In this document: positions 1 to 19,419 of the stretch, piece after piece | How positions within the stretch are numbered: the stretch's first letter is position 1 | Layout: the number at the start of each line of letters is the position of its first letter | From: an uncultured Methanosarcinales archaeon | GTDB taxonomy: Archaea > Nanobdellota > Nanobdellia > Woesearchaeales > CAXGTL01 | Direction of reading: 5' to 3' | Assembly (NCBI GenBank): GCA_964535955.1 | Contig: CAZHVK010000008.1 | Span: 52,435 to 72,434, forward strand | DNA length: 20,000 bases | Position numbers and translations under genes: made by a program | Notes under the pieces: model-generated | The model's input: only the letters and a program-made list of their open reading frames with translations | Told to the model about the DNA's origin: nothing | Database searches by the model: none

Positions 1-1000
1 AATTATGCAAATAAACCCTAAAACTATCCACATATGGAGAATTCCTTAATTTTTTTAATGATCTTGATATGACAAGTCTTATTCCTTCCCTTGTCAAGTC
101 ATAATTTGCCTTGATTTCTTTTAAAGTTCTTTGAATTCCATCTCTTAAACCAAATCTCAACCTCATTATTTCAGCATCCCTCTCAGATAAATACTTTGAT
201 AAGAAGCCTTCCACCTCAGACTTTAGTGCCAATTTGATTGCTGCATCCTCAGTACCCAACCTATTGTCTTTAACAAAATAATATTTTGATACAACACCTT
301 TACCATCTTTTACTTTCTTGTCCAATGAATCACAAGTCTTATCATATCTTATTAATTCATTAAACCTTTCTTTAGAAATGTTTATTTCATGCGCCAGCTC
401 ATGATAATTAGGCTTTCTAAAATGTTTTCTAATGAACTTATTTTCAGTCCTAATCAGTTTGCCAATCAACTCGTAAATCCAAGTAGGAATCCTTATAGTT
501 CTGTCAGAATATATAATCTCATTAACAATCGCATTTCTTATTGACTTTCCTGCAAGATGAGATAGCTTTTTATTGAATTCAATCTTATATTTTCTTGCAC
601 ATCTTAGCAAAGCAATGTTTCCCTCTTGAATCAAATCAAGAAAATCCAGTTTTCTAGTATCATACTCTTTTGCTATTTTCACAACCAAAGGCAAATTATT
701 AGCAACTAAATCCTCTTCTGCTTCCTTGCTAAACTGCTTCTCCTTTCCTAATCTTAACTCTTCCTCAAGACTAAGAACTCTTACTTCTGGAAAACTAGTT
801 ATATATAACTTAAGGTTACTTTCCAAAAATTCTTTATCTTTAACATCATCTTCTTTTTTAGAATCAAATTCATCCCAATATTCAACATAATTAATATCTT
901 TGCGCAAGCTTGTACAAAATCTTTCTATTTTCCCATCAATATCAGAATCTAGAATAAGTAATGCAATTTCTGGTTCATATGCTGTTTGTACGTATTCCAT
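1..1000 (-). CDS. Sigma70-family (RpoD/RpoS-like) RNA polymerase sigma factor homolog, divergent copy A; 333 codons in window, stop lies beyond position 1
   Basis: Not in ORF track; translated by hand from ATG at 1000: MEYVQTAYEPE...SNLKLYITSFPEVRVLSLEEELRLGK (region 1.2)...LVANNLPLVVKIAKEY..RKLDFLDLIQEGNIALLRCARKY (2.1/2.2)...RTIRIP...RKPNYHELA (3)...LSERDAEIMRLRFGLRDGIQRTLKEIKANYDLTREGIRLVISRSLKKLR (4)...RVYLHN. Confidence 0.92.
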   Translation of the reverse strand, partial: MEYVQTAYEPEIALLILDSDIDGKIERFCTSLRKDINYVEYWDEFDSKKEDDVKDKEFLESNLKLYITSFPEVRVLSLEEELRLGKEKQFSKEAEEDLVANNLPLVVKIAKEYDTRKLDFLDLIQEGNIALLRCARKYKIEFNKKLSHLAGKSIRNAIVNEIIYSDRTIRIPTWIYELIGKLIRTENKFIRKHFRKPNYHELAHEINISKERFNELIRYDKTCDSLDKKVKDGKGVVSKYYFVKDNRLGTEDAAIKLALKSEVEGFLSKYLSERDAEIMRLRFGLRDGIQRTLKEIKANYDLTREGIRLVISRSLKKLRNSPYVDSFRVYLHN

Positions 1001-1025
1001 TTATATATTAGTTTATATTAAAGGA

Positions 1026-1040
1026 TTTATATATTTTACT
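1026..1040 (-). promoter_or_regulatory. Archaeal BRE-TATA promoter of sigma copy A (probably leaderless mRNA)
   Basis: Minus strand reads agtaaaa-TATATAAA, then 25 nt to the ATG at 1000; similar geometry to the archaeal genes in the window. Confidence 0.6.
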
Positions 1041-1042
1041 GA

Positions 1043-2113
1043 TTAATTATATTTCCAGAAATCAAAGAACTTTTTTCTGAACATTGGACAAGCTCTTAAT
1101 TTTCTAATTGCCTTTGCCTCAATCTGTCTTATTCTTTCCCTTACTACTCCATACTGCTCACCAATACATTGTAAAGTCCTAGGGATTCCATCTTTCAAGC
1201 CAAATCTTTGCACCATCACATCAACTTCTTTCTCAGATAAATAATGTTTTTCATTAAAAAAATAATCATACATACTTTTTCTTAGAACTGCATGATTGAC
1301 AGCATTATCAACATTAAAATTTTTGTTTTCTATAAAATCTGACAATGTTTCACCTCCCTCATAAATATAATTTAAAGAAAGACATTTATGATTAGCTTTC
1401 ATCAGTGTTTCTACTCTTTGTGGTTTATATCCAGAAGCTTGTGCAATCTCTAGATAAGTGGGTTTTCTTTTTAGTTTTTTTTCTAATTTTCTTTCATGTT
1501 GCAGTAATTGTGAAATTACTTGTACAGATTGAGCAGGTATTCTAATAGTTCTTGATTGTTCTTCAATAGCCCTTACAATTGATTGTCTAATCCTATATGG
1601 TGCATATGTTGAAAATTTGTAACCAAATTTATAATCCCATTTTTTAACAGCTTTCATCAGACCTTTATTACCTTCTTGAATAAGATCATTCCATTCTAAA
1701 CCTCTATTTTTAAACATTTTAGCAACATGCACTACTAAACAAAGGTTTGCCTCTGTAAAATCATTCTCTGCTTGTTTACTTCCTTGTTCAATTCGTTTTG
1801 CTATTTTTTTTTGTTCTTCAAACTCCCTTATACATGATTTTTTCATTATCTCTGTTCTGTATTGTGAAAAAGAATTTGTATAGTCAATGTCTGGGTTTTG
1901 TTTTTCTTTCTTGTTATCTTGTGTTATCTGTTCAAATATATCATTATGTATTTCATTATCATGCTTTTCATTAGATTTTGTCTTTTTTTCTTGTTGTTTA
2001 TTTATATTATATTCAAGAAGTTCTAATTCTATATTGTCTATTGATGTCTCTAGATTGACATTACACTTAAGATCAATATTCACCTCTTTTGTCAATGTTT
2101 GTGTTTTATACAT
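1043..2113 (-). CDS. Sigma70-family (RpoD/RpoS-like) RNA polymerase sigma factor homolog, copy B, 356 aa
   Basis: EANLCLVVHVAKMFKNRGLEWNDLIQEGNKGLMKAVKKWDYKFGYKFSTYA, RTIRIP, RKPTYLEIA, TLSDFIE and RFGLKDGIPRTLQCIGEQYGVVRERIRQIEAKAIRKLR match sigma70 regions 2, 3 and 4. Confidence 0.95.
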   Translation of the reverse strand: MYKTQTLTKEVNIDLKCNVNLETSIDNIELELLEYNINKQQEKKTKSNEKHDNEIHNDIFEQITQDNKKEKQNPDIDYTNSFSQYRTEIMKKSCIREFEEQKKIAKRIEQGSKQAENDFTEANLCLVVHVAKMFKNRGLEWNDLIQEGNKGLMKAVKKWDYKFGYKFSTYAPYRIRQSIVRAIEEQSRTIRIPAQSVQVISQLLQHERKLEKKLKRKPTYLEIAQASGYKPQRVETLMKANHKCLSLNYIYEGGETLSDFIENKNFNVDNAVNHAVLRKSMYDYFFNEKHYLSEKEVDVMVQRFGLKDGIPRTLQCIGEQYGVVRERIRQIEAKAIRKLRACPMFRKKFFDFWKYN

Positions 2114-2140
2114 AGTAATTTTGAGAAATCTAATTATTTG

Positions 2141-2156
2141 TTTTTAAAGTTTTTGG
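2141..2156 (-). promoter_or_regulatory. Archaeal BRE-TATA promoter of sigma copy B
   Basis: Minus strand reads ccaaaaac-TTTAAAAA, then 27 nt to the ATG at 2113. Confidence 0.6.
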
Positions 2157-2204
2157 TTATAGGACTAAAGATTTATATATACCAAAAGATTAAAAGGTAA
2201 TATA

Positions 2205-2531
2205 ATGAAATTTAAGGATTATAAATTAAAAATACATAATGTTGAAAAACATGTTAGATTAAATCCTGTAATGAAAACAAAAAAAGATTATGATGAAGAA
2301 ATTCTTAGATTAAATGAATATTATGAAAAGATAAGGACTTATGAAAAAGAAGTAGAAGAGGACAAGGATCTGACAGACAGTGAAAGAGAACAATTGGTAA
2401 TGTACTTAGGAGCTGTAAAAGACAAGATTGTTGATCAATTTAATAAAGTTACAGCTTTAGGTGATAAAATTATTAGAAAAAAGTTAGAAAAAGAGAATAA
2501 ATGGGTGCCTGTTTTTGAAAAAGCTGCTTAA
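2205..2531 (+). CDS. Hypothetical helical/charged protein, 108 aa, divergent from sigma copy B
   Basis: Clean ORF with upstream TTTATATA box and K/E-rich composition; no family recognised. Confidence 0.75.
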   Translation: MKFKDYKLKIHNVEKHVRLNPVMKTKKDYDEEILRLNEYYEKIRTYEKEVEEDKDLTDSEREQLVMYLGAVKDKIVDQFNKVTALGDKIIRKKLEKENKWVPVFEKAA

Positions 2532-3289
2532 GTGTGATTCATTTTCCATTTCTTCCTAAAAAACTTCAAAGCTTTATTTCTAAATTTAGAATCATTTATT
2601 TTTATAGTTATAGGTTCATCCCCCCACATACTTATCAAAACATGATCCTTAAATATCATCAAACCCCATGGAAAAACTTCATCAGTGTACTTAACTTTGT
2701 ATGTTTTTTTAGTTGTATACAGCTTTTCCCATTCTTTTTTAGATTCTTTTGGTGCTAAACCTTTTAAAATAAGTTTTTTATCTTTAGCAATTGTATCTAA
2801 TTGTAAAAAAAGATTATGAAGTTTTTCATCTTTTTGAAATTCTTTTGGTTGAGATATGAAAGGTGCTTCACTACCTTTTCTAGTATTAAAATAACTTTCC
2901 ATAAAAGCAGTTTTAAACCCTTTTCTTCCTTCATATATCTCTGCACTTGACTTTTTTGCTTGAGATTTAATTGATTTTAGTTTAGGTAAACTTTTTTTAA
3001 TTGTTTTTAGCTTTTTATCTAACACATTTTTCTGTTCCTGCACAAATCCAGTAAATACGTCAGGCTCTGCTGCATTATAATGCTTTATCTTACCTATTAA
3101 TACAAATGTCACAAGACCTTTTTCAATCAACTTATTGACATTATTATGAACAACAGATGATTGTAGATTTGTTTTTTTGATTATTTCACCGACTTTAGAT
3201 TGTCCTAATTCTAATAAAATTAAGTAAATCACAGCCTGAGCATGTGTCAAACCAATATTCTGCAATAATTCTATATCATTTCGATTCAT
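2528..3289 (-). CDS. TrmB-family transcriptional regulator (N-terminal winged HTH plus effector domain)
   Basis: LLQNIGLTHAQAVIYLILLELG..KVGEIIKKTNL..SVVHNNVNKLIEKGLV...HYNAAEP, followed by EIYEGRKG, typical of TrmB-like proteins. Confidence 0.88.
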   Translation of the reverse strand: MNRNDIELLQNIGLTHAQAVIYLILLELGQSKVGEIIKKTNLQSSVVHNNVNKLIEKGLVTFVLIGKIKHYNAAEPDVFTGFVQEQKNVLDKKLKTIKKSLPKLKSIKSQAKKSSAEIYEGRKGFKTAFMESYFNTRKGSEAPFISQPKEFQKDEKLHNLFLQLDTIAKDKKLILKGLAPKESKKEWEKLYTTKKTYKVKYTDEVFPWGLMIFKDHVLISMWGDEPITIKINDSKFRNKALKFFRKKWKMNHT

Positions 3290-3310
3290 ACTCTCCTAAG
3301 AAAGGAGAGT
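3290..3310. promoter_or_regulatory. Palindrome ACTCTCCT-N5-AGGAGAGT between TATA box and start codon of the TrmB-like gene (candidate operator)
   Basis: Perfect 8-bp inverted repeat at 3290-3297/3303-3310; minus-strand TATA box at 3314-3321. Confidence 0.45.
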
Positions 3311-3374
3311 TAGTATATAAATATTACTATTTGTTACTATTTTTTTATTACAAACTGCTTGAGATAGAGACAAA

Positions 3375-4226
3375 ATGGATTATAGAGACAAGATAAAATT
3401 TGCAGATGAAAAAAGTCCTGAATTTATTAAGAATATGGATTATTTTTTTAGAAATTCAAATGAGGATGTACAAATTACAACTGATTTTTTAAAAGAATTC
3501 AGGAAAAGATACAAACAACCAAAAACTAAGTTAGATTGGTTAGATGTTGGCACAGGACCTTGTGTTAAACCAATCATGATTTTAGAAGGAAGTAATAGAA
3601 ATAGTGGTTTGATAAATGATTTCAATGAAATATATATTGATGTTATTGAGCCTGAAGAATCTTGGCACGATATTTTTACACACAATCTTAATGAATTAGG
3701 ATTATATTGGTTAATAACAAATATTTTTAGTTCAACATGGGAAGATTTTGATCAAGATAAAAAGTATAATTTAATTACTTTTTTTCATTCAACATATGGG
3801 ATTGATCCTGAATCATTAGGAAAAGTGCCAAATATATTGCATGAAGGTGGAATTGCATGCATTATATTAGAAGATCCTGAATCTGCATTGTATAAAATTA
3901 AACAAAGAGTTAGTTCTTATATCAATTTAAGAGAAACAGTTTCATTTTCAAAAGAGATCTCTGATGTATTAAGTCAAAAAGGAATTTATCATGAAATTCA
4001 AAAAAATGAATCTAAGAGAATGCTTTATGTTGATGATCTATTGAAAGATGATGATATAACACAATTATCATTTTTATTACAGACAAAATTAGAGAATCAT
4101 GATAAAAGAATACAAAAAAAAGTATTAAATGAAATGAAAGATGAATTAAATAAACATATTAAAGAAGATCAAAATAGGAAAAAATATATAGAAACACCTG
4201 ATGAATTTATATGGGTCTATAACTAA
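3375..4226 (+). CDS. Class I SAM-dependent methyltransferase, 283 aa
   Basis: Motif I WLDVGTGP, acidic end of beta-2 (IDVIEP), TWEDF, YNLITFFHSTY, LHEGGIACII. Confidence 0.82.
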   Translation: MDYRDKIKFADEKSPEFIKNMDYFFRNSNEDVQITTDFLKEFRKRYKQPKTKLDWLDVGTGPCVKPIMILEGSNRNSGLINDFNEIYIDVIEPEESWHDIFTHNLNELGLYWLITNIFSSTWEDFDQDKKYNLITFFHSTYGIDPESLGKVPNILHEGGIACIILEDPESALYKIKQRVSSYINLRETVSFSKEISDVLSQKGIYHEIQKNESKRMLYVDDLLKDDDITQLSFLLQTKLENHDKRIQKKVLNEMKDELNKHIKEDQNRKKYIETPDEFIWVYN

Positions 4227-4236
4227 CTGCAGAATT

Positions 4237-4740
4237 TCACTCAATCAAATCAACTATATAATCACATTTATATTCTTGAATAATTGTTCCTACATCATAG
4301 AATTTTATCACATTAGAAAATTTAGATCTAATAACTCTTAAGACATCATCGAATTCTTTGAAATCTTTTGAACAAATTGCAATTGCTAGATCCCATTTAC
4401 CAGTCATCTTATTTACATAGATAATATTCTTATGCTGGGTTAAAAACCCAATAAATTTATCTTCAATTTCTGGAGTAAAATTAGACAAGCTAAACAAAAC
4501 ATAAGTATACATTGGATAACCTAATTTAGATGGATTCAAAAAAGCATGATACATACGAACAACCTTCAGATCTTCTAATCTTTTGATTCTATATTTTACA
4601 ACATCTCTTTGTAATTTTGTTTTTCTAGCTATCTGGCTAATAGATTGTCTTGCATTAAGCTGCAATTCTTTTAAGATCTTTTTATCTTTTTTATCTAACT
4701 TAACCTTTTCTCCAAACTCAATCAATGTATTTTTATGCAT
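4237..4740 (-). CDS. Lrp/AsnC-family transcriptional regulator
   Basis: LDKKDKKILKELQLNARQSISQIARKTKL..DVVKYRIKRLE HTH; LNPSKLGY; MTGKWDL RAM domain. ATG at 4740 preferred over TTG at 4749. Confidence 0.93.
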   Translation of the reverse strand: MHKNTLIEFGEKVKLDKKDKKILKELQLNARQSISQIARKTKLQRDVVKYRIKRLEDLKVVRMYHAFLNPSKLGYPMYTYVLFSLSNFTPEIEDKFIGFLTQHKNIIYVNKMTGKWDLAIAICSKDFKEFDDVLRVIRSKFSNVIKFYDVGTIIQEYKCDYIVDLIE

Positions 4741-4834
4741 AATATCCAAAATGGATGAAATAATATATAAACTTTTCTATTTTGGTGGAAAAATAGGACA
4801 TAAACATTTATATTATTAAGTTTATCATTTGACT

Positions 4835-9382: not shown

Positions 9383-9443
9383 ATTCTTTACCATATTGAA
9401 AACAAAGGTCATATTTAAATATTAGGTTGTTTTTCTATATATT

Positions 9444-9713
9444 ATGGGATTTGATGAATATAATTTTGATAATGTTGTTGATGATCTTAGATACAATATA
9501 CAAGAATGCATAGATTATTATAGAAATACTGATAATGATAAACCTAAGAATTATACTACTTTTATGTTATTTTTACAAATTTTAAAACACGAACATGGTG
9601 TAGAAGATCCAAGTAATGTGGAAATAATGAATTCTTTTAAAAAAAAACCTTGTAAAACTAAAGAAAAACAAGCTTTGCAAGACAATGTAATAGATTTGTC
9701 AGAATACTTATAA
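9444..9713 (+). CDS. Hypothetical protein, 89 aa
   Basis: ORF with TTTAAATA box ~22 nt upstream and a hairpin downstream; no family recognised. Confidence 0.6.
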   Translation: MGFDEYNFDNVVDDLRYNIQECIDYYRNTDNDKPKNYTTFMLFLQILKHEHGVEDPSNVEIMNSFKKKPCKTKEKQALQDNVIDLSEYL

Positions 9714-9729
9714 AGTATTCTGAGCATGA

Positions 9730-9750
9730 TCAAGAATCTGCGATTCTTGA
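9730..9750 (+). terminator. Perfect 9-bp hairpin downstream of the 89-aa ORF (terminator-like or binding site)
   Basis: tcaagaatc-tgc-gattcttga; no following U-tract, so the function is uncertain. Confidence 0.35.
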
Positions 9751-9908
9751 CATAACTTCTAGATTAAAGCAATAAAGTTTCATACTTTTGAAAAGTGGTG
9801 ACTATTAAATTCTTAACTTATATGTTCTGTATGTGACAATATACTGTTTTGTATACTAAATTACAAATATACACTTTCGTAACATTTATATACTAGTATA
9901 ACATAAAA

Positions 9909-10376
9909 GAATGTATAACAAATGATCATTAACAAAGCTAATGATTGTTAACATTCATAAAAAAGGGGCTCTGTTTATAATTCTAATAATACCACCCCTC
10001 ACACTCATATAACTCGAGCCCCTTATTATTTTCACATAATCATTAATTCATATAGGCGAAGAAAAAAGTAATAAGTTGTTCATTAATGCAGATCAGGAAT
10101 ATGAACAATGAAACGAGTTGAATCTGACCTGAAACCAAAAAGCTACTTAGACCAGCTCTTTACTTGATAGGACCTTGGAGAAAAAAGAGGTGTAAAATAA
10201 ATTAGTATGAGGTGATGCAATAGTAACTTTGATGACTAAATGCTTTTTTTGGGCAAGGCATTTATGAAAAGTAGTTAATTAACATTTTAATTGCCCTATA
10301 TTTTTTTTTAACCTGGGTGAGTATAAGTTTGACTTGGTGCTGGGCTGTTACCTTGTAAACTTCACAAAAACTCACC
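9909..10376 (+). ncRNA. Candidate structured RNA or long leader made of consecutive hairpins; no known family recognised
   Basis: No long ORF. Stems: 9909-9956 (gaatgt/acattc, taaca/tgtta, atcatta/taatgat), 9963-10024 (aaggggctc/gagcccctt), 10076-10108 (ttgttcat/atgaacaa), 10156-10189 (ctcttt/aaagag), 10237-10264 (taaatgcttt/aaggcattta), 10316-10376 (ggtgagt/actcacc, aagttt/aaactt). BRE-TATA cgtaaca-TTTATATA with TATA at 9885-9892. Confidence 0.55.
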
Positions 10377-10408
10377 AAATATTTTTTTTAAAAACAAAAA
10401 CAAGAAAA

Positions 10409-10543
10409 ATGGAAGACACTGTATTTGGATCAATAATATTTAGCACAAATCTTATCTTAATAGTTCTGAGTTTATTCATAACAATGCATTATACTAAGAA
10501 TTACAAATTACTAAAAGAAATAAAAGAGGTGATTACAATCTAA
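10409..10543 (+). CDS. Small single-pass membrane peptide, 44 aa
   Basis: MEDTVFGSIIFSTNLILIVLSLFITMHYTKNYKLLKEIKEVITI: ~20-aa hydrophobic helix followed by a basic tail. ATG at 10409 preferred over TTG at 10334, which lies inside a hairpin. Confidence 0.5.
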   Translation: MEDTVFGSIIFSTNLILIVLSLFITMHYTKNYKLLKEIKEVITI

Positions 10544-10756
10544 AGAATGAATTTTTGATCGAACTAATTGTTTTAAGGACACAAAAGGTTGATTTCTTTA
10601 ATCTGTTTTATATAGGTTAATCTAATTTTCTTACAAGTTCTTCAATACAATAAACAAAAATAATACATGAATACATAAAATTTTAAGTATTCTGTCTAAT
10701 TCTGAGATTTAATAAATTAGCAAAGATTTATAAACATTACACAAAAACAAAATAAC

Positions 10757-16343: not shown

Positions 16344-16462
16344 GCCCCTGTAGCTTAATGGCTAGAGCAGCACTCTCGTAAAGTGCAGGTTGCAGGTTCA
16401 AACAGACTCACTGGCGTTTGATACTTTCAACGCTAGGAGCATTGAAAATCCTGCCAGGGGCT
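16344..16462 (+). tRNA. tRNA-Thr(CGU) with 46-nt intron at 59/60 (16403-16448)
   Basis: Acceptor GCCCCTG/CAGGGGC; anticodon arm GCACT-CT-CGT-AA-AGTGC; T stem GCAGG/CCTGC; BHB helix ttca/tgaa with bulges aac and aat restores TTCAAAT; U73. Confidence 0.93.
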
Positions 16463-17493: not shown

Positions 17494-18435
17494 CTATTTA
17501 TTTTTTTGTGATTTTTTCTTGTTTTTTGCCTTTTTAACTTCTTTTTCTAATTTAAGTTTTATAATAAGTTCTTTATATCTGTTTCTTATTGTAACTTCTG
17601 TAACGCCTGCAACATCTGCAACTTCTCTTTGTGTTCTTTTTTCACCATGAATCAAAGATGAAATATATAAAGCTGCAGCTGCTATACCACTAGGGCCTTT
17701 ACCAGATGTTAATTCTAATTTCTGAGCTTTTTCTAAGAACTCAATTGCTTTGGTTTGACATTCTGGACTTAATTTTAATTTGCTTGAAAACCTACTGATA
17801 TAATCAACAGGATTAGTAGGTAAAACAAAAATTTTTAGTTCTCTTACTACAAACCTATAGATTTTTCCAATTTCTTTTTTTTCAATACCTGATGCAGAAG
17901 ATAATTCCTCTAATTTTCTTGGCATTTCATGGATCTTGCAAGCAGCATATAGAACAGCAGAAACAACAGATTCCATTGATCTTCCACGAACCAATCCTTT
18001 TTGTGCAGCTGTCTTATATATACGAGCTGCTTCTTCTTCGATAGCTTTTGGTAATTTTAAAATAGATGAAAATCTTTTTATTTCTGATAATGAAAATCTA
18101 AGATTCTTCTCAAGACCAGAATTACCAATATATTGCTGTTTTCTCAATCTTATCATTTTATATTTATCTTTACCTTTTAATTTACTAATATCTGCTTTAC
18201 TTCCAATTTCAGTACGTAAAGGATCAAAGTCTAAATCAGAAATAGGTGATCCTGTTCTTCTTTTTGCTGCATCTGCACCACTATTTTCACCAAACTCACG
18301 CCATTCTTGACCATGATCTATAACCTTATCATCAATAACTAAACCACATTCTTTACAAAGAATCTGTCCTTTATCTTTATCATAATAAATTTTCTTTCTT
18401 CCGCATTCTGGACATTTTTCTATGAAACCTGACAT
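17494..18435 (-). CDS. tfb: Transcription initiation factor IIB (TFB), diverged paralog
   Basis: CPECG..CKECG Zn ribbon, EWREF, GLVRGRS, TQREVADVAGVTEVTIRNRYKEL. Confidence 0.95.
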   Translation of the reverse strand: MSGFIEKCPECGRKKIYYDKDKGQILCKECGLVIDDKVIDHGQEWREFGENSGADAAKRRTGSPISDLDFDPLRTEIGSKADISKLKGKDKYKMIRLRKQQYIGNSGLEKNLRFSLSEIKRFSSILKLPKAIEEEAARIYKTAAQKGLVRGRSMESVVSAVLYAACKIHEMPRKLEELSSASGIEKKEIGKIYRFVVRELKIFVLPTNPVDYISRFSSKLKLSPECQTKAIEFLEKAQKLELTSGKGPSGIAAAALYISSLIHGEKRTQREVADVAGVTEVTIRNRYKELIIKLKLEKEVKKAKNKKKSQKNK

Positions 18436-18483: not shown

Positions 18484-19419
18484 TTATCTTCGTCTTTTCT
18501 TTTTCTTAGTGTTTTTAATTTCTTTTTCTAGCTTGAGTCTTTCTAATAATTCCTTATAACGGTTCCTTATTGTAACTTCTGTAACACCTGCTACATCTGC
18601 AACTTCTCTTTGTGTTCTTTTTTCACCATGAATTAGCGCACTAACATATAATGCTGCTGCAGCTATGCCAGTAGGTCCTCTTCCTGATGTTAGTTCTACT
18701 TCTTGTGCTTTTTCTAGAATTTCCATTGCACGAGATTGTGATTCTGCACTTAATTTTAATGCACTTGCAAATCTTGCAATATAATCAGCAGGATTACTTG
18801 GTAAAATTGAGATTCCTAGTTCTCTTGTAACAAATCTGTATGTTCTGCCTATTTCTTTTTTCTCAATACCAGATGCTTCTGATAATTCATCTAATGTTCT
18901 TGGTACTTCATGACGCCTACATGCTGCGTATAATGCTCCTGATACAACAGATTCCATTGATCTTCCTCTTACAAGACCTCTTTGTACAGCCATTCTATAA
19001 ATACGAGCTGCTTCTTCTTCAACACTTCCTGGTAATTTTAGATAAGAAGATACTCTTTTTAATTCTGATAATGCTAATTTTAAGTTTCTTTCTATTGCAG
19101 TTGATATTCTTGACTGCCATTTCCTAAGTCTAAAGAATTTGTTTCTGTTTTTTCCAGCTAATTTAAATAAATCTGATTTTTGACCAATCTCTGTTCCTAG
19201 CCCCATATCAAACTCTGTATCAGAAATTGGTGCGCCTGTTCTTCTTTTAGATGCATCTGCGCCAGCATTTTCACCAAATTCACGCCATTCTTGACCAAAA
19301 TCAATCATCTTGTCTTCAATAACAAGACCACAATCTTTACAAATAACTTCTCCTTTTTCTTTATTATGAAATAGATTTATTCCGCCGCATTCTGGGCATT
19401 TTTTAACAAAGTGTGTCAT
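18484..19419 (-). CDS. tfb: Transcription initiation factor IIB (TFB), canonical copy
   Basis: CPECG..CKDCG, EWREF, RLRKWQ, ERNL, GLVRGRS, PRTLDEL, SGRGP, TQREVADVAGVTEVTIRNRYKEL. Confidence 0.97.
   Translation of the reverse strand: MTHFVKKCPECGGINLFHNKEKGEVICKDCGLVIEDKMIDFGQEWREFGENAGADASKRRTGAPISDTEFDMGLGTEIGQKSDLFKLAGKNRNKFFRLRKWQSRISTAIERNLKLALSELKRVSSYLKLPGSVEEEAARIYRMAVQRGLVRGRSMESVVSGALYAACRRHEVPRTLDELSEASGIEKKEIGRTYRFVTRELGISILPSNPADYIARFASALKLSAESQSRAMEILEKAQEVELTSGRGPTGIAAAALYVSALIHGEKRTQREVADVAGVTEVTIRNRYKELLERLKLEKEIKNTKKKKRRR

Follow-up and report, generated by a model that had tools for sequence, protein, structure and literature searches.

Two tandem sigma-70-family genes without the tryptophan dyad in a Woesearchaeote that encodes an archaeal RNA polymerase

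The 20,000 nucleotide (nt) stretch of contig CAZHVK010000008.1 analysed here, which we refer to as the window, begins with two sigma-70-family genes arranged in tandem on the minus strand of a Woesearchaeota (DPANN) genome. We term these genes copy B and copy A (Table 1). Copy A is complete, because its stop codon straddles window base 1, and it is separated by a 42 nt spacer from copy B, to which its product is 32% identical. Bacterial-type sigma factors are not new to archaea. The first archaeal examples are credited to Rinke et al. 2013 (PMC6126073), and a family of sigma-70-class genes, fam00359, has been described in DPANN archaea as 'particularly prevalent in Woesearchaeota', with mis-binning excluded (PMC8204110, Castelle et al. 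2021). In its treatment of fam00359, that report finds no anti-sigma factors and leaves the mechanism unclear. Copies A and B are of the kind already reported in these organisms and may be members of fam00359 itself.

Both proteins consist of a weak segment resembling region 1.2 followed by sigma regions 2, 3 and 4. The Pfam matches of copy B all exceed their cut-offs (Sigma70_r2, 50.7 bits; Sigma70_r3, 32.4 bits; Sigma70_r4, 45.2 bits), as do those of copy A to regions 2 and 4 (39.9 and 38.6 bits), with region 3 under its cut-off (23.5 against 25.3 bits). The NCBIfam superfamily model TIGR02937 matches copy A at 68.6 bits against a cut-off of 42.9. Neither region 1.1 (PF03979) nor region 1.2 (PF00140) is listed for A or B at E <= 0.01, and the bacterial matches carry both. 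When solved structures were searched with phmmer, the top match was SigA of B. subtilis for copy B (7ckq_F, E = 4.7e-57) and SigA of M. smegmatis for copy A (5tw1_F, E = 5.3e-38). All RpoD, RpoS and SigB models of NCBIfam that are listed for the two proteins fall under their own cut-offs, as with RpoD_Cterm TIGR02393 (225.8 bits for B and 160.3 for A; cut-off 354) and the SigBFG model (96.4 and 70.2; cut-off 234), and for neither copy do the 25 best-scoring NCBIfam models listed include one for FliA. AlphaFold2 models, built from alignments of 32 and 39 rows, have low confidence only in the N-terminal 15-50 residues and are confident over the remainder, from the 1.2-like segment through to the C-terminus. 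Their mean predicted local distance difference test (pLDDT) scores are 85.0 for B and 83.1 for A, and residues 60-333 of copy A are mostly above 85. Both sigma-70-family paralogues of this Woesearchaeote are intact and foldable, and they stand in tandem.

The genomic setting of the pair is archaeal throughout. On their 72-kb contig the genes lie at approximately 52-54 kb, with aRF1/SecF/SecD on one side and a GatB-like gene on the other, and their G+C content equals that of the rest of the genome (about 30%). Archaeal genes flank them on both sides, in synteny with two other assemblies of the genus, and the rest of the window encodes L21e, the RNA polymerase subunit Rpo4/F, an XPD-type helicase, TrmB- and Lrp-type regulators and a GatB/GatE-family protein. 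Contigs from other samples span the A-B junction. DNA matching window positions 1-2300 was found in eight datasets from two marine/seawater metagenome studies, and metagenome contigs of four runs show no variants and agree fully with the window over the parts that they cover. These sigma-70-class genes reside on a genuinely archaeal DPANN contig, and mis-binning is excluded.

To place the motifs of regions 2 to 4, we used HMMER alignments to the solved SigA chains together with a MAFFT alignment against the RpoD of E. coli (NC_000913). The segment that reads FSTYATWWIRQAI in E. coli sigma-70 is FSTYAPYRIRQSI in copy B and LSHLAGKSIRNAI in copy A. The sequence of region 2.3-2.4 is KFSTYAPYRIRQSI in copy B, which gives T432P, W433Y and W434R in E. 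coli numbering, and KLSHLAGKSIRNAI in copy A (527-565), which gives W433K and W434S. An earlier note on this DNA had claimed that both proteins lost the promoter-melting Trp dyad and kept two motifs intact, RTIRIP and DLIQEGN. The former lies at the junction of regions 2.4 and 3.0, and the latter, in region 2.2, is a surface motif for beta-prime binding in bacteria. Alignments to E. coli RpoD and SigA bear these statements out, since the dyad is replaced by Tyr-Arg in B and by Lys-Ser in A, and DLIQEGN and RTIRIP are identical to the bacterial motifs at seven of seven and six of six positions in both copies. The note's placement of the features was right to within a few bases, except that RTIRIP of copy A lies just below position 510, where it had set the start.

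Although there is no Trp in either dyad, to speak of one common loss merges two distinct states. Copy B retains Y425, F427, Y430, R436 and Q437, its residue at 433 is still aromatic, and it keeps all four -35 readers (the equivalents of R584, E585, R588 and Q589). Copy A has none of these aromatics. Positions 425, 427 and 430 are K, L and L, positions 437, 440 and 441 are N, V and N, and the losses comprise the dyad, Y425, Y430, Q437, T440, R441 and Q589. As a separate observation, word depth reaches more than 1,000-fold at window positions 1618-1694, over the stretch that codes for DLIQEGN in copy B; this spike comes from contigs of other organisms, presumably rpoD, that carry 5-7 mismatches over approximately 35-50 bases.

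Table 1. Positions of the two sigma-70-family genes and of their motifs and candidate promoter elements in the window.
Feature	Position	Strand	Remarks
Copy B, sigma-70-family paralogue	1043..2113	minus	ORF of 356 amino acids
Copy A, sigma-70-family paralogue	2..1000	minus	ORF of 333 amino acids
Copy B DLIQEGN, region 2.2, residues 143-149	1667..1687	minus	7/7 identical to bacterial motif
Copy A DLIQEGN, region 2.2, residues 122-128	617..637	minus	7/7
Copy B Pro172-Tyr173-Arg174, replacing T432-W433-W434	1592..1600	minus	From alignments; codons CCA TAT AGG
Copy A Lys152-Ser153, replacing W433-W434	542..547	minus	From alignments
Copy A Y425 to K, Y430 to L, Q437 to N	within 527-574	minus	From alignments
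Copy B RTIRIP, region 2.4/3.0 junction	1535..1552	minus	6/6
Copy A RTIRIP	485..502	minus	6/6
Copy B region 4.2 helix-turn-helix, TLQCIGEQYGVVRERIRQIEAKAIRKLR	1094..1177	minus	Identity to group-1 consensus 0.71
Copy A region 4.2 helix-turn-helix, TLKEIKANYDLTREGIRLVISRSLKKLR	44..127	minus	Diverged; R586 to G, Q589 to L; identity 0.42
TTTAAAAA, TATA-box-like	2141..2148	minus	28-35 nt upstream of copy B ATG; sequence read, putative function
Second element, TATATAAA-like	2171-2180	minus	Upstream of copy B; putative function
TATATAAAT, TATA-box-like	1025..1033	minus	25-33 nt upstream of copy A ATG, within A-B spacer; putative function
ORF, open reading frame.

We then expressed conservation as the identity to the bacterial group-1 consensus in each sigma region, with approximate boundaries that we take to be those of the E. 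coli literature. For copy B the values are 0.48 in region 2.1, 0.74 in region 2.2, 0.62 in region 2.3, 0.74 in region 2.4, 0.21-0.33 in regions 3.0-3.2, 0.34 in region 4.1 and 0.71 in region 4.2; the corresponding values for copy A are 0.52, 0.58, 0.19, 0.58, 0.16-0.32, 0.45 and 0.42. The profile of copy B is close to that of E. coli RpoS, which scores 0.68, 0.69, 0.68 and 0.58 in regions 2.2, 2.3, 2.4 and 4.2. In this copy the DNA-reading regions 2.4 and 4.2 are kept as well as the core-binding region 2.2. Domain 2 of copy A is least conserved, by a wide margin, in region 2.3, and E. coli RpoH is similar in this respect (0.25).

These profiles bear on the proposal, made with the original observation, that selection has preserved only the core-binding surface, and that the proteins are dominant-negative or anti-polymerase factors that sit on the clamp without opening DNA. 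Exact DLIQEGN motifs beside a missing dyad in both copies fit this proposal, and so does the difference between regions 2.2 and 2.3 in copy A. In copy B, by contrast, conservation extends beyond region 2.2, which regions 2.4 and 4.2 match.

The proposal further assumed that loss of the dyad means loss of melting, and here it conflicts with what is known of bacterial sigma factors. The W-dyad is widespread among group-1 sigma factors, and others use different wedge residues that tune specificity, with activity in the order WW > HW > QR (PMC10216364). In the alignment that contains A and B, E. coli FliA has Gln-Arg at 433/434 and RpoH has His-Trp. Sigma-28 lacks both tryptophans and still forms open complexes, and a conserved Arg occupies the W434 position of group-3 sigma factors, in which it contacts base -12 (PMC12784957). 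This Arg is present in copy B (Arg174) and absent from copy A (Ser153). As judged from the alignment, the Tyr-Arg of copy B is the group-3 wedge state. Among alternative sigma factors dyad loss is ordinary, and alone it is not diagnostic of lost melting or of non-sigma function. The ability of Trp-less group-3 sigma factors to melt promoters speaks against a clamp-blocking role. Only copy A looks truly non-melting, because Y425, Y430 and Q437 have been lost as well. A second role put forward in the earlier note, that of a non-melting DNA-binding adaptor, is therefore a fair description of copy A, with its eroded region 2.3. Copy B is in a group-3-like wedge state with its DNA readers intact.

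We also considered the state of the dyad in related archaea. A Sigma70_r2 match was found in 77 of 201 genomes of the same order and, in a separate search, in 19 of 41 relatives; the former tally includes three unpublished genomes that are left out of the later counts (74 sigma-bearing genomes). The open frames of the matched loci were searched with a region-2 profile built from the RpoD/sigma alignment, which yielded 110 distinct region-2 domains from 69 genomes, 109 of them scorable at 433/434. WW is the most frequent state, with 56 domains, followed by no Trp (23 domains, A and B among them), Trp at 434 only (22 domains) and Trp at 433 only (8 domains). Loss of WW is thus not common to the archaeal homologues, a possibility that the earlier note had wished to see checked. 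DLIQEGN is intact (7/7) in three of the 23 Trp-less domains, namely A, B and one other, and RTIRIP (6/6) only in A and B. Nine of the 23 are unaligned over RTIRIP; most of these are short and several carry a region 2.2 motif like that of extracytoplasmic function (ECF) sigma factors, and therefore they probably never had a dyad. Tyr430 is present in 88% of the 110 domains; among those that are Trp-less, only copy A and one other lack an aromatic side chain at this position. The combination of exact DLIQEGN and RTIRIP with a lost dyad is uncommon, is no chance noise and is lineage-specific. Dyad loss itself is neither general to these archaea nor diagnostic of non-sigma function.

Adjacent sigma genes on the same strand occur in 12 of the 74 sigma-bearing genomes. 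In the pairs of two of these (G003, a congener, and G035), one copy has WW and the other has lost the dyad (SG and SK, respectively), and the pair described here is one of three such arrays without any WW copy. Quick maximum-likelihood trees unite A, B and the WW-bearing G003 copy, with Shimodaira-Hasegawa-like approximate likelihood ratio test (SH-aLRT) values of 90 and 88, the second tree leaving out six long-branch rows. The order within this trio is unsupported (14), and either one dyad loss or two independent losses could have taken place. Longer arrays were seen at L081 (G042:C3:16554-21345), where four consecutive same-strand sigma-70-family genes have the wedges WW, WW, WH and WH, and at L105 (G181:C6:8394-12886), where three have WW, WQ and DW. 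Two further sigma genes from archaeal bins, L003 (G017:C67) and L004 (G031:C3), encode proteins of 463 and 563 amino acids on short branches within the bacterial RpoD clade, one of the two being sister to Patescibacteria RpoD (SH-aLRT 99). This placement suggests that the genes were transferred recently or, in the case of G017 with its 6% contamination, that the contig is foreign.

What the proteins could act upon is constrained by the transcription machinery of the host, whose assembly of 1.49 Mb in 31 contigs is rated at 100% completeness and 1.8% contamination. Its one Rpb1-type locus, which is split into proteins of 856 and 374 amino acids, lies beside a split Rpo2 and is below the bacterial rpoC cut-off, and no bacterial beta-prime or core enzyme was found in the genome. 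The nearest Rpo1N sequences in named records are from Candidatus Woesearchaeota or Nanoarchaeota. The genome also encodes TBP, TFE-alpha-like genes and two TFBs. The TFB (TFIIB-type) genes are themselves in tandem in the window (17494-18435 and 18484-19419, both minus strand), and their products share 69% identity across 298 residues. No other TFB gene was found in the genome, which therefore combines duplicated basal factors with two sigma homologues.

Residues 264-309 of E. coli beta-prime align without gaps to residues 236-281 of the host Rpo1N, with 16 of 46 positions identical when counted on the alignment. Substitution of R275, E295 or A302 in E. coli beta-prime leads to deficient holoenzyme formation (PMC8321222), and at these positions the host protein has Ile247, Leu267 and His274. 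All three residues are the same in each of 29 Rpo1N sequences from the order, whether sigma genes are present or not, and thus the clamp coiled-coil gives no sign of co-adaptation. Complex predictions for domain 2 of copy B (75-196) with Rpo1N 205-340, made from alignments of 32 and 29 rows, respectively, scored 0.29 and 0.12 against a mark of 0.32, without controls, and weigh neither for nor against a contact. Because the host clamp lacks the three E. coli docking residues, the exact DLIQEGN requires another explanation, and the statement that core-binding region 2.2 was kept is true of the motif, with the reservation that its presumed partner in this host has diverged at the docking positions. 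A clamp-blocking factor presumes a bacterial core. With an archaeal polymerase only and a coiled-coil that differs at every one of the positions critical in E. coli, we regard that explanation as improbable.

Our preferred view, which we hold at about even chances, is that A and B are accessory sequence-specific transcription regulators that act beside the archaeal basal machinery, with melting left to the latter. Copy B would be a group-1-derived sigma factor whose wedge has turned Tyr-Arg; most likely it is a sequence-specific promoter binder in which melting is weakened rather than abolished. For copy A, its residues suggest that canonical capture of the -10 non-template strand is no longer possible, and this protein is most likely a non-melting DNA-binding or adaptor paralogue. 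Both would work alongside the archaeal basal factors. If the archaeal machinery does the melting, the dyad would in consequence be under relaxed constraint in this lineage, and the finding that WW is present in 56 of 109 domains while Tyr430 is present in 88% of 110 counts in favour of this view.

Several points weigh against the accessory-regulator view. Half of the homologues keep WW, which argues that the constraint of melting persists in many lineages and that its relaxation may be lineage-specific. An exactly conserved DLIQEGN would have no explanation without contact to the polymerase. The three docking positions of the host Rpo1N all carry other residues than in E. coli. Bacterial-type -35/-10 pairs are not in excess in window positions 1-3400 (20 against 18.8 +/- 3.8 expected) or upstream of 1,214 crude ORF calls genome-wide (47 against 54.2 +/- 6.4 in shuffled sequence). 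In the genome-wide test TTGACA ranks 11th of 180 permutations and has a flat positional profile, and a small regulon would escape a test of this type. No RNA dataset is among those listed as matching window positions 1-2300.

The same results bear on the possibility that A and B are true sigma factors for the archaeal polymerase, which would bind to the clamp coiled-coil of Rpo1N and bring about initiation, melting included, at a small private regulon. Such proteins would constitute a hybrid bacterial/archaeal initiation route. The full sigma architecture with confidently predicted folds in both copies is what such a function would call for, the coiled-coil is homologous across the domains of life, and conservation without a bacterial polymerase extends to region 2.2, to Y430 and, for half of the homologues in the order, to WW; copy B also retains its -10 and -35 readers. 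Set against this are the replaced beta-prime contact residues, a coiled-coil that is the same with or without sigma genes, the lack of promoter-motif enrichment and the dispensability of the genes within the genus, and we consider this explanation unlikely. An elaboration would make A and B a two-part hybrid initiation module on the archaeal polymerase, for which the bacterial-type region 2.2 has been kept although the host clamp lacks the bacterial docking residues. In this module B, with its group-3-style wedge, would read a promoter of -35/-10-like type, and A, which has neither the Trp dyad nor Tyr430, would be its non-melting partner or competitor. The pair would amount to a sigma-dependent route that bypasses or modulates TBP/TFB, and the tandem arrays in 12 of 74 genomes would represent such modules as sets of paralogues. 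We give this elaboration little credence.

Variation at the locus provides evidence of another sort. Compared with the congener G003, nine of 11 syntenic flanking proteins are 65-85% identical (the two small upstream ORFs are at 43% and 52%) and Rpo1N is 87% identical between this genome (G000) and G003, whereas the two G003 sigma proteins encoded at this site share only 30-37% identity with A and B. A second congener (G001) has one sigma gene at the locus. In a third (G002, 94% complete) no sigma gene was found, and the neighbourhood is rearranged. The locus is a fast-evolving, strain-variable and dispensable accessory slot. We also searched 5.8 billion proteins for relatives, scoring each query against the best 8,000 candidates by shared words. 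Among these candidates, the only entry above 47% identity to copy B is identical to it, and the only one above 38% identity to copy A is its own strain variant, which differs by a single in-frame deletion of nine amino acids.

Rapid change of this kind would be expected if the genes had come with an old bacterial-to-archaeal transfer and were now decaying or neutral passengers that lost the dyad by drift. The divergence is very fast relative to the flanks, the genes are patchily distributed (they occur in 77 of 201 genomes, and G002 yielded none), and neither copy has a close relative among the candidates scored. However, both ORFs are intact and full-length, with all domains modelled at pLDDT values above 90, DLIQEGN and RTIRIP are exact, copy B keeps the whole recognition helix of region 4.2, and the sole indel variant seen is in frame. 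Moreover, each gene has its own TATA-like element (Table 1) at a spacing that is expected of archaeal TATA boxes in leaderless genes. These elements are only a hint, because AT-rich words are frequent at about 30% G+C. We judge passenger status to be about as doubtful as a true sigma function, and if anything slightly more so.

A last alternative places the target outside the cell's own machinery, in the RNA polymerase of a bacterial partner or neighbour, for instance. DLIQEGN is the bacterial motif even though the host clamp differs at the docking positions, and copy B has 47% identity to bacterial RpoD, whereas its identity to archaeal homologues is 37% or less. The branch lengths of the trees indicate that slow evolution of RpoD explains this closeness equally well. 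No signal peptide, secretion system or delivery module was seen beside the genes when neighbouring proteins were compared with Pfam, and no evidence was found that these archaea associate with bacteria. This alternative seems to us very improbable.

Other features of the window were noted in passing. Copy B is separated from the GatB-like gene by approximately 3 kb of extra sequence (2205-4749; compared with L040, G003:C24, 9233-12868), and in the congeners G003 and G001 a sigma gene adjoins the GatB-like gene directly. The extra sequence holds a coiled-coil-like ORF of 108 amino acids, a TrmB-type gene, an ORF of 283 amino acids and an Lrp/AsnC regulator; the 283 amino acid product has no Pfam match and carries a GTG-type motif resembling those that bind S-adenosylmethionine. 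At 16344-16416 (plus strand) there is an Rfam tRNA match of 29.7 bits against a gathering score of 29, for which ARAGORN makes no call, and this may be an atypical or degenerate tRNA. Approximately 1.4 kb between the XPD-type helicase gene and a DHH/DHHA1 gene (9383-10756) contains no ORF longer than 89 amino acids and no Rfam match at the gathering score. A search for defence systems gave MzaA as its sole model match, through the common sigma domains (217.8 bits against a cut-off of 800), and no system was found.

The role of bacterial sigma factors in archaea that have only an archaeal polymerase has been a puzzle since the first reports, and the present case narrows the question without answering it. 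The Trp dyad is an unreliable marker of functional loss, given that half of the order's homologues retain it and that copy B is in the group-3 state. The genes occupy a hyper-variable slot, often as tandem arrays. The contrast between A and B offers a natural pair for comparing binding and melting.

Comparison with known systems places the pair as follows. Like the DPANN sigma-70 genes of fam00359, A and B have the full domain set, reside in the chromosome of a Woesearchaeote, are patchily distributed and have no anti-sigma factor nearby. They differ in being two tandem paralogues of which neither has a Trp at 433/434, a minority state (23 of 109 domains), and the Trp-less state combined with exact DLIQEGN and RTIRIP is rarer still. 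The group-1 primary sigma factors (SigA 7ckq_F, SigA 5tw1_F and E. coli RpoD) are the best sequence matches of both proteins, with near-identical regions 2.2 and 2.4/3.0 (RTIRIP) in A and B and a near-identical region 4.2 in B only. In contrast to these factors, A and B lack the W-dyad and Pfam matches to regions 1.1 and 1.2, score far under the RpoD_Cterm cut-off and belong to a host without the bacterial core enzyme.

Two alternative sigma factors of E. coli share features with the pair. Sigma-32 (RpoH) has a partly replaced dyad (HW) and a low identity in region 2.3 (0.25) that resembles that of copy A (0.19). The HW dyad of RpoH has lower melting power and sharpens promoter specificity (PMC10216364). 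RpoH retains W434 and uses a bacterial core, whereas copy A has neither Trp. Sigma-28 (FliA) has no Trp wedge and has Arg at the W434 position. A and B differ from it in being RpoD-like overall, and copy A does not have this Arg; at the wedge itself, AVQRIRG of E. coli FliA is matched by APYRIRQ in copy B.

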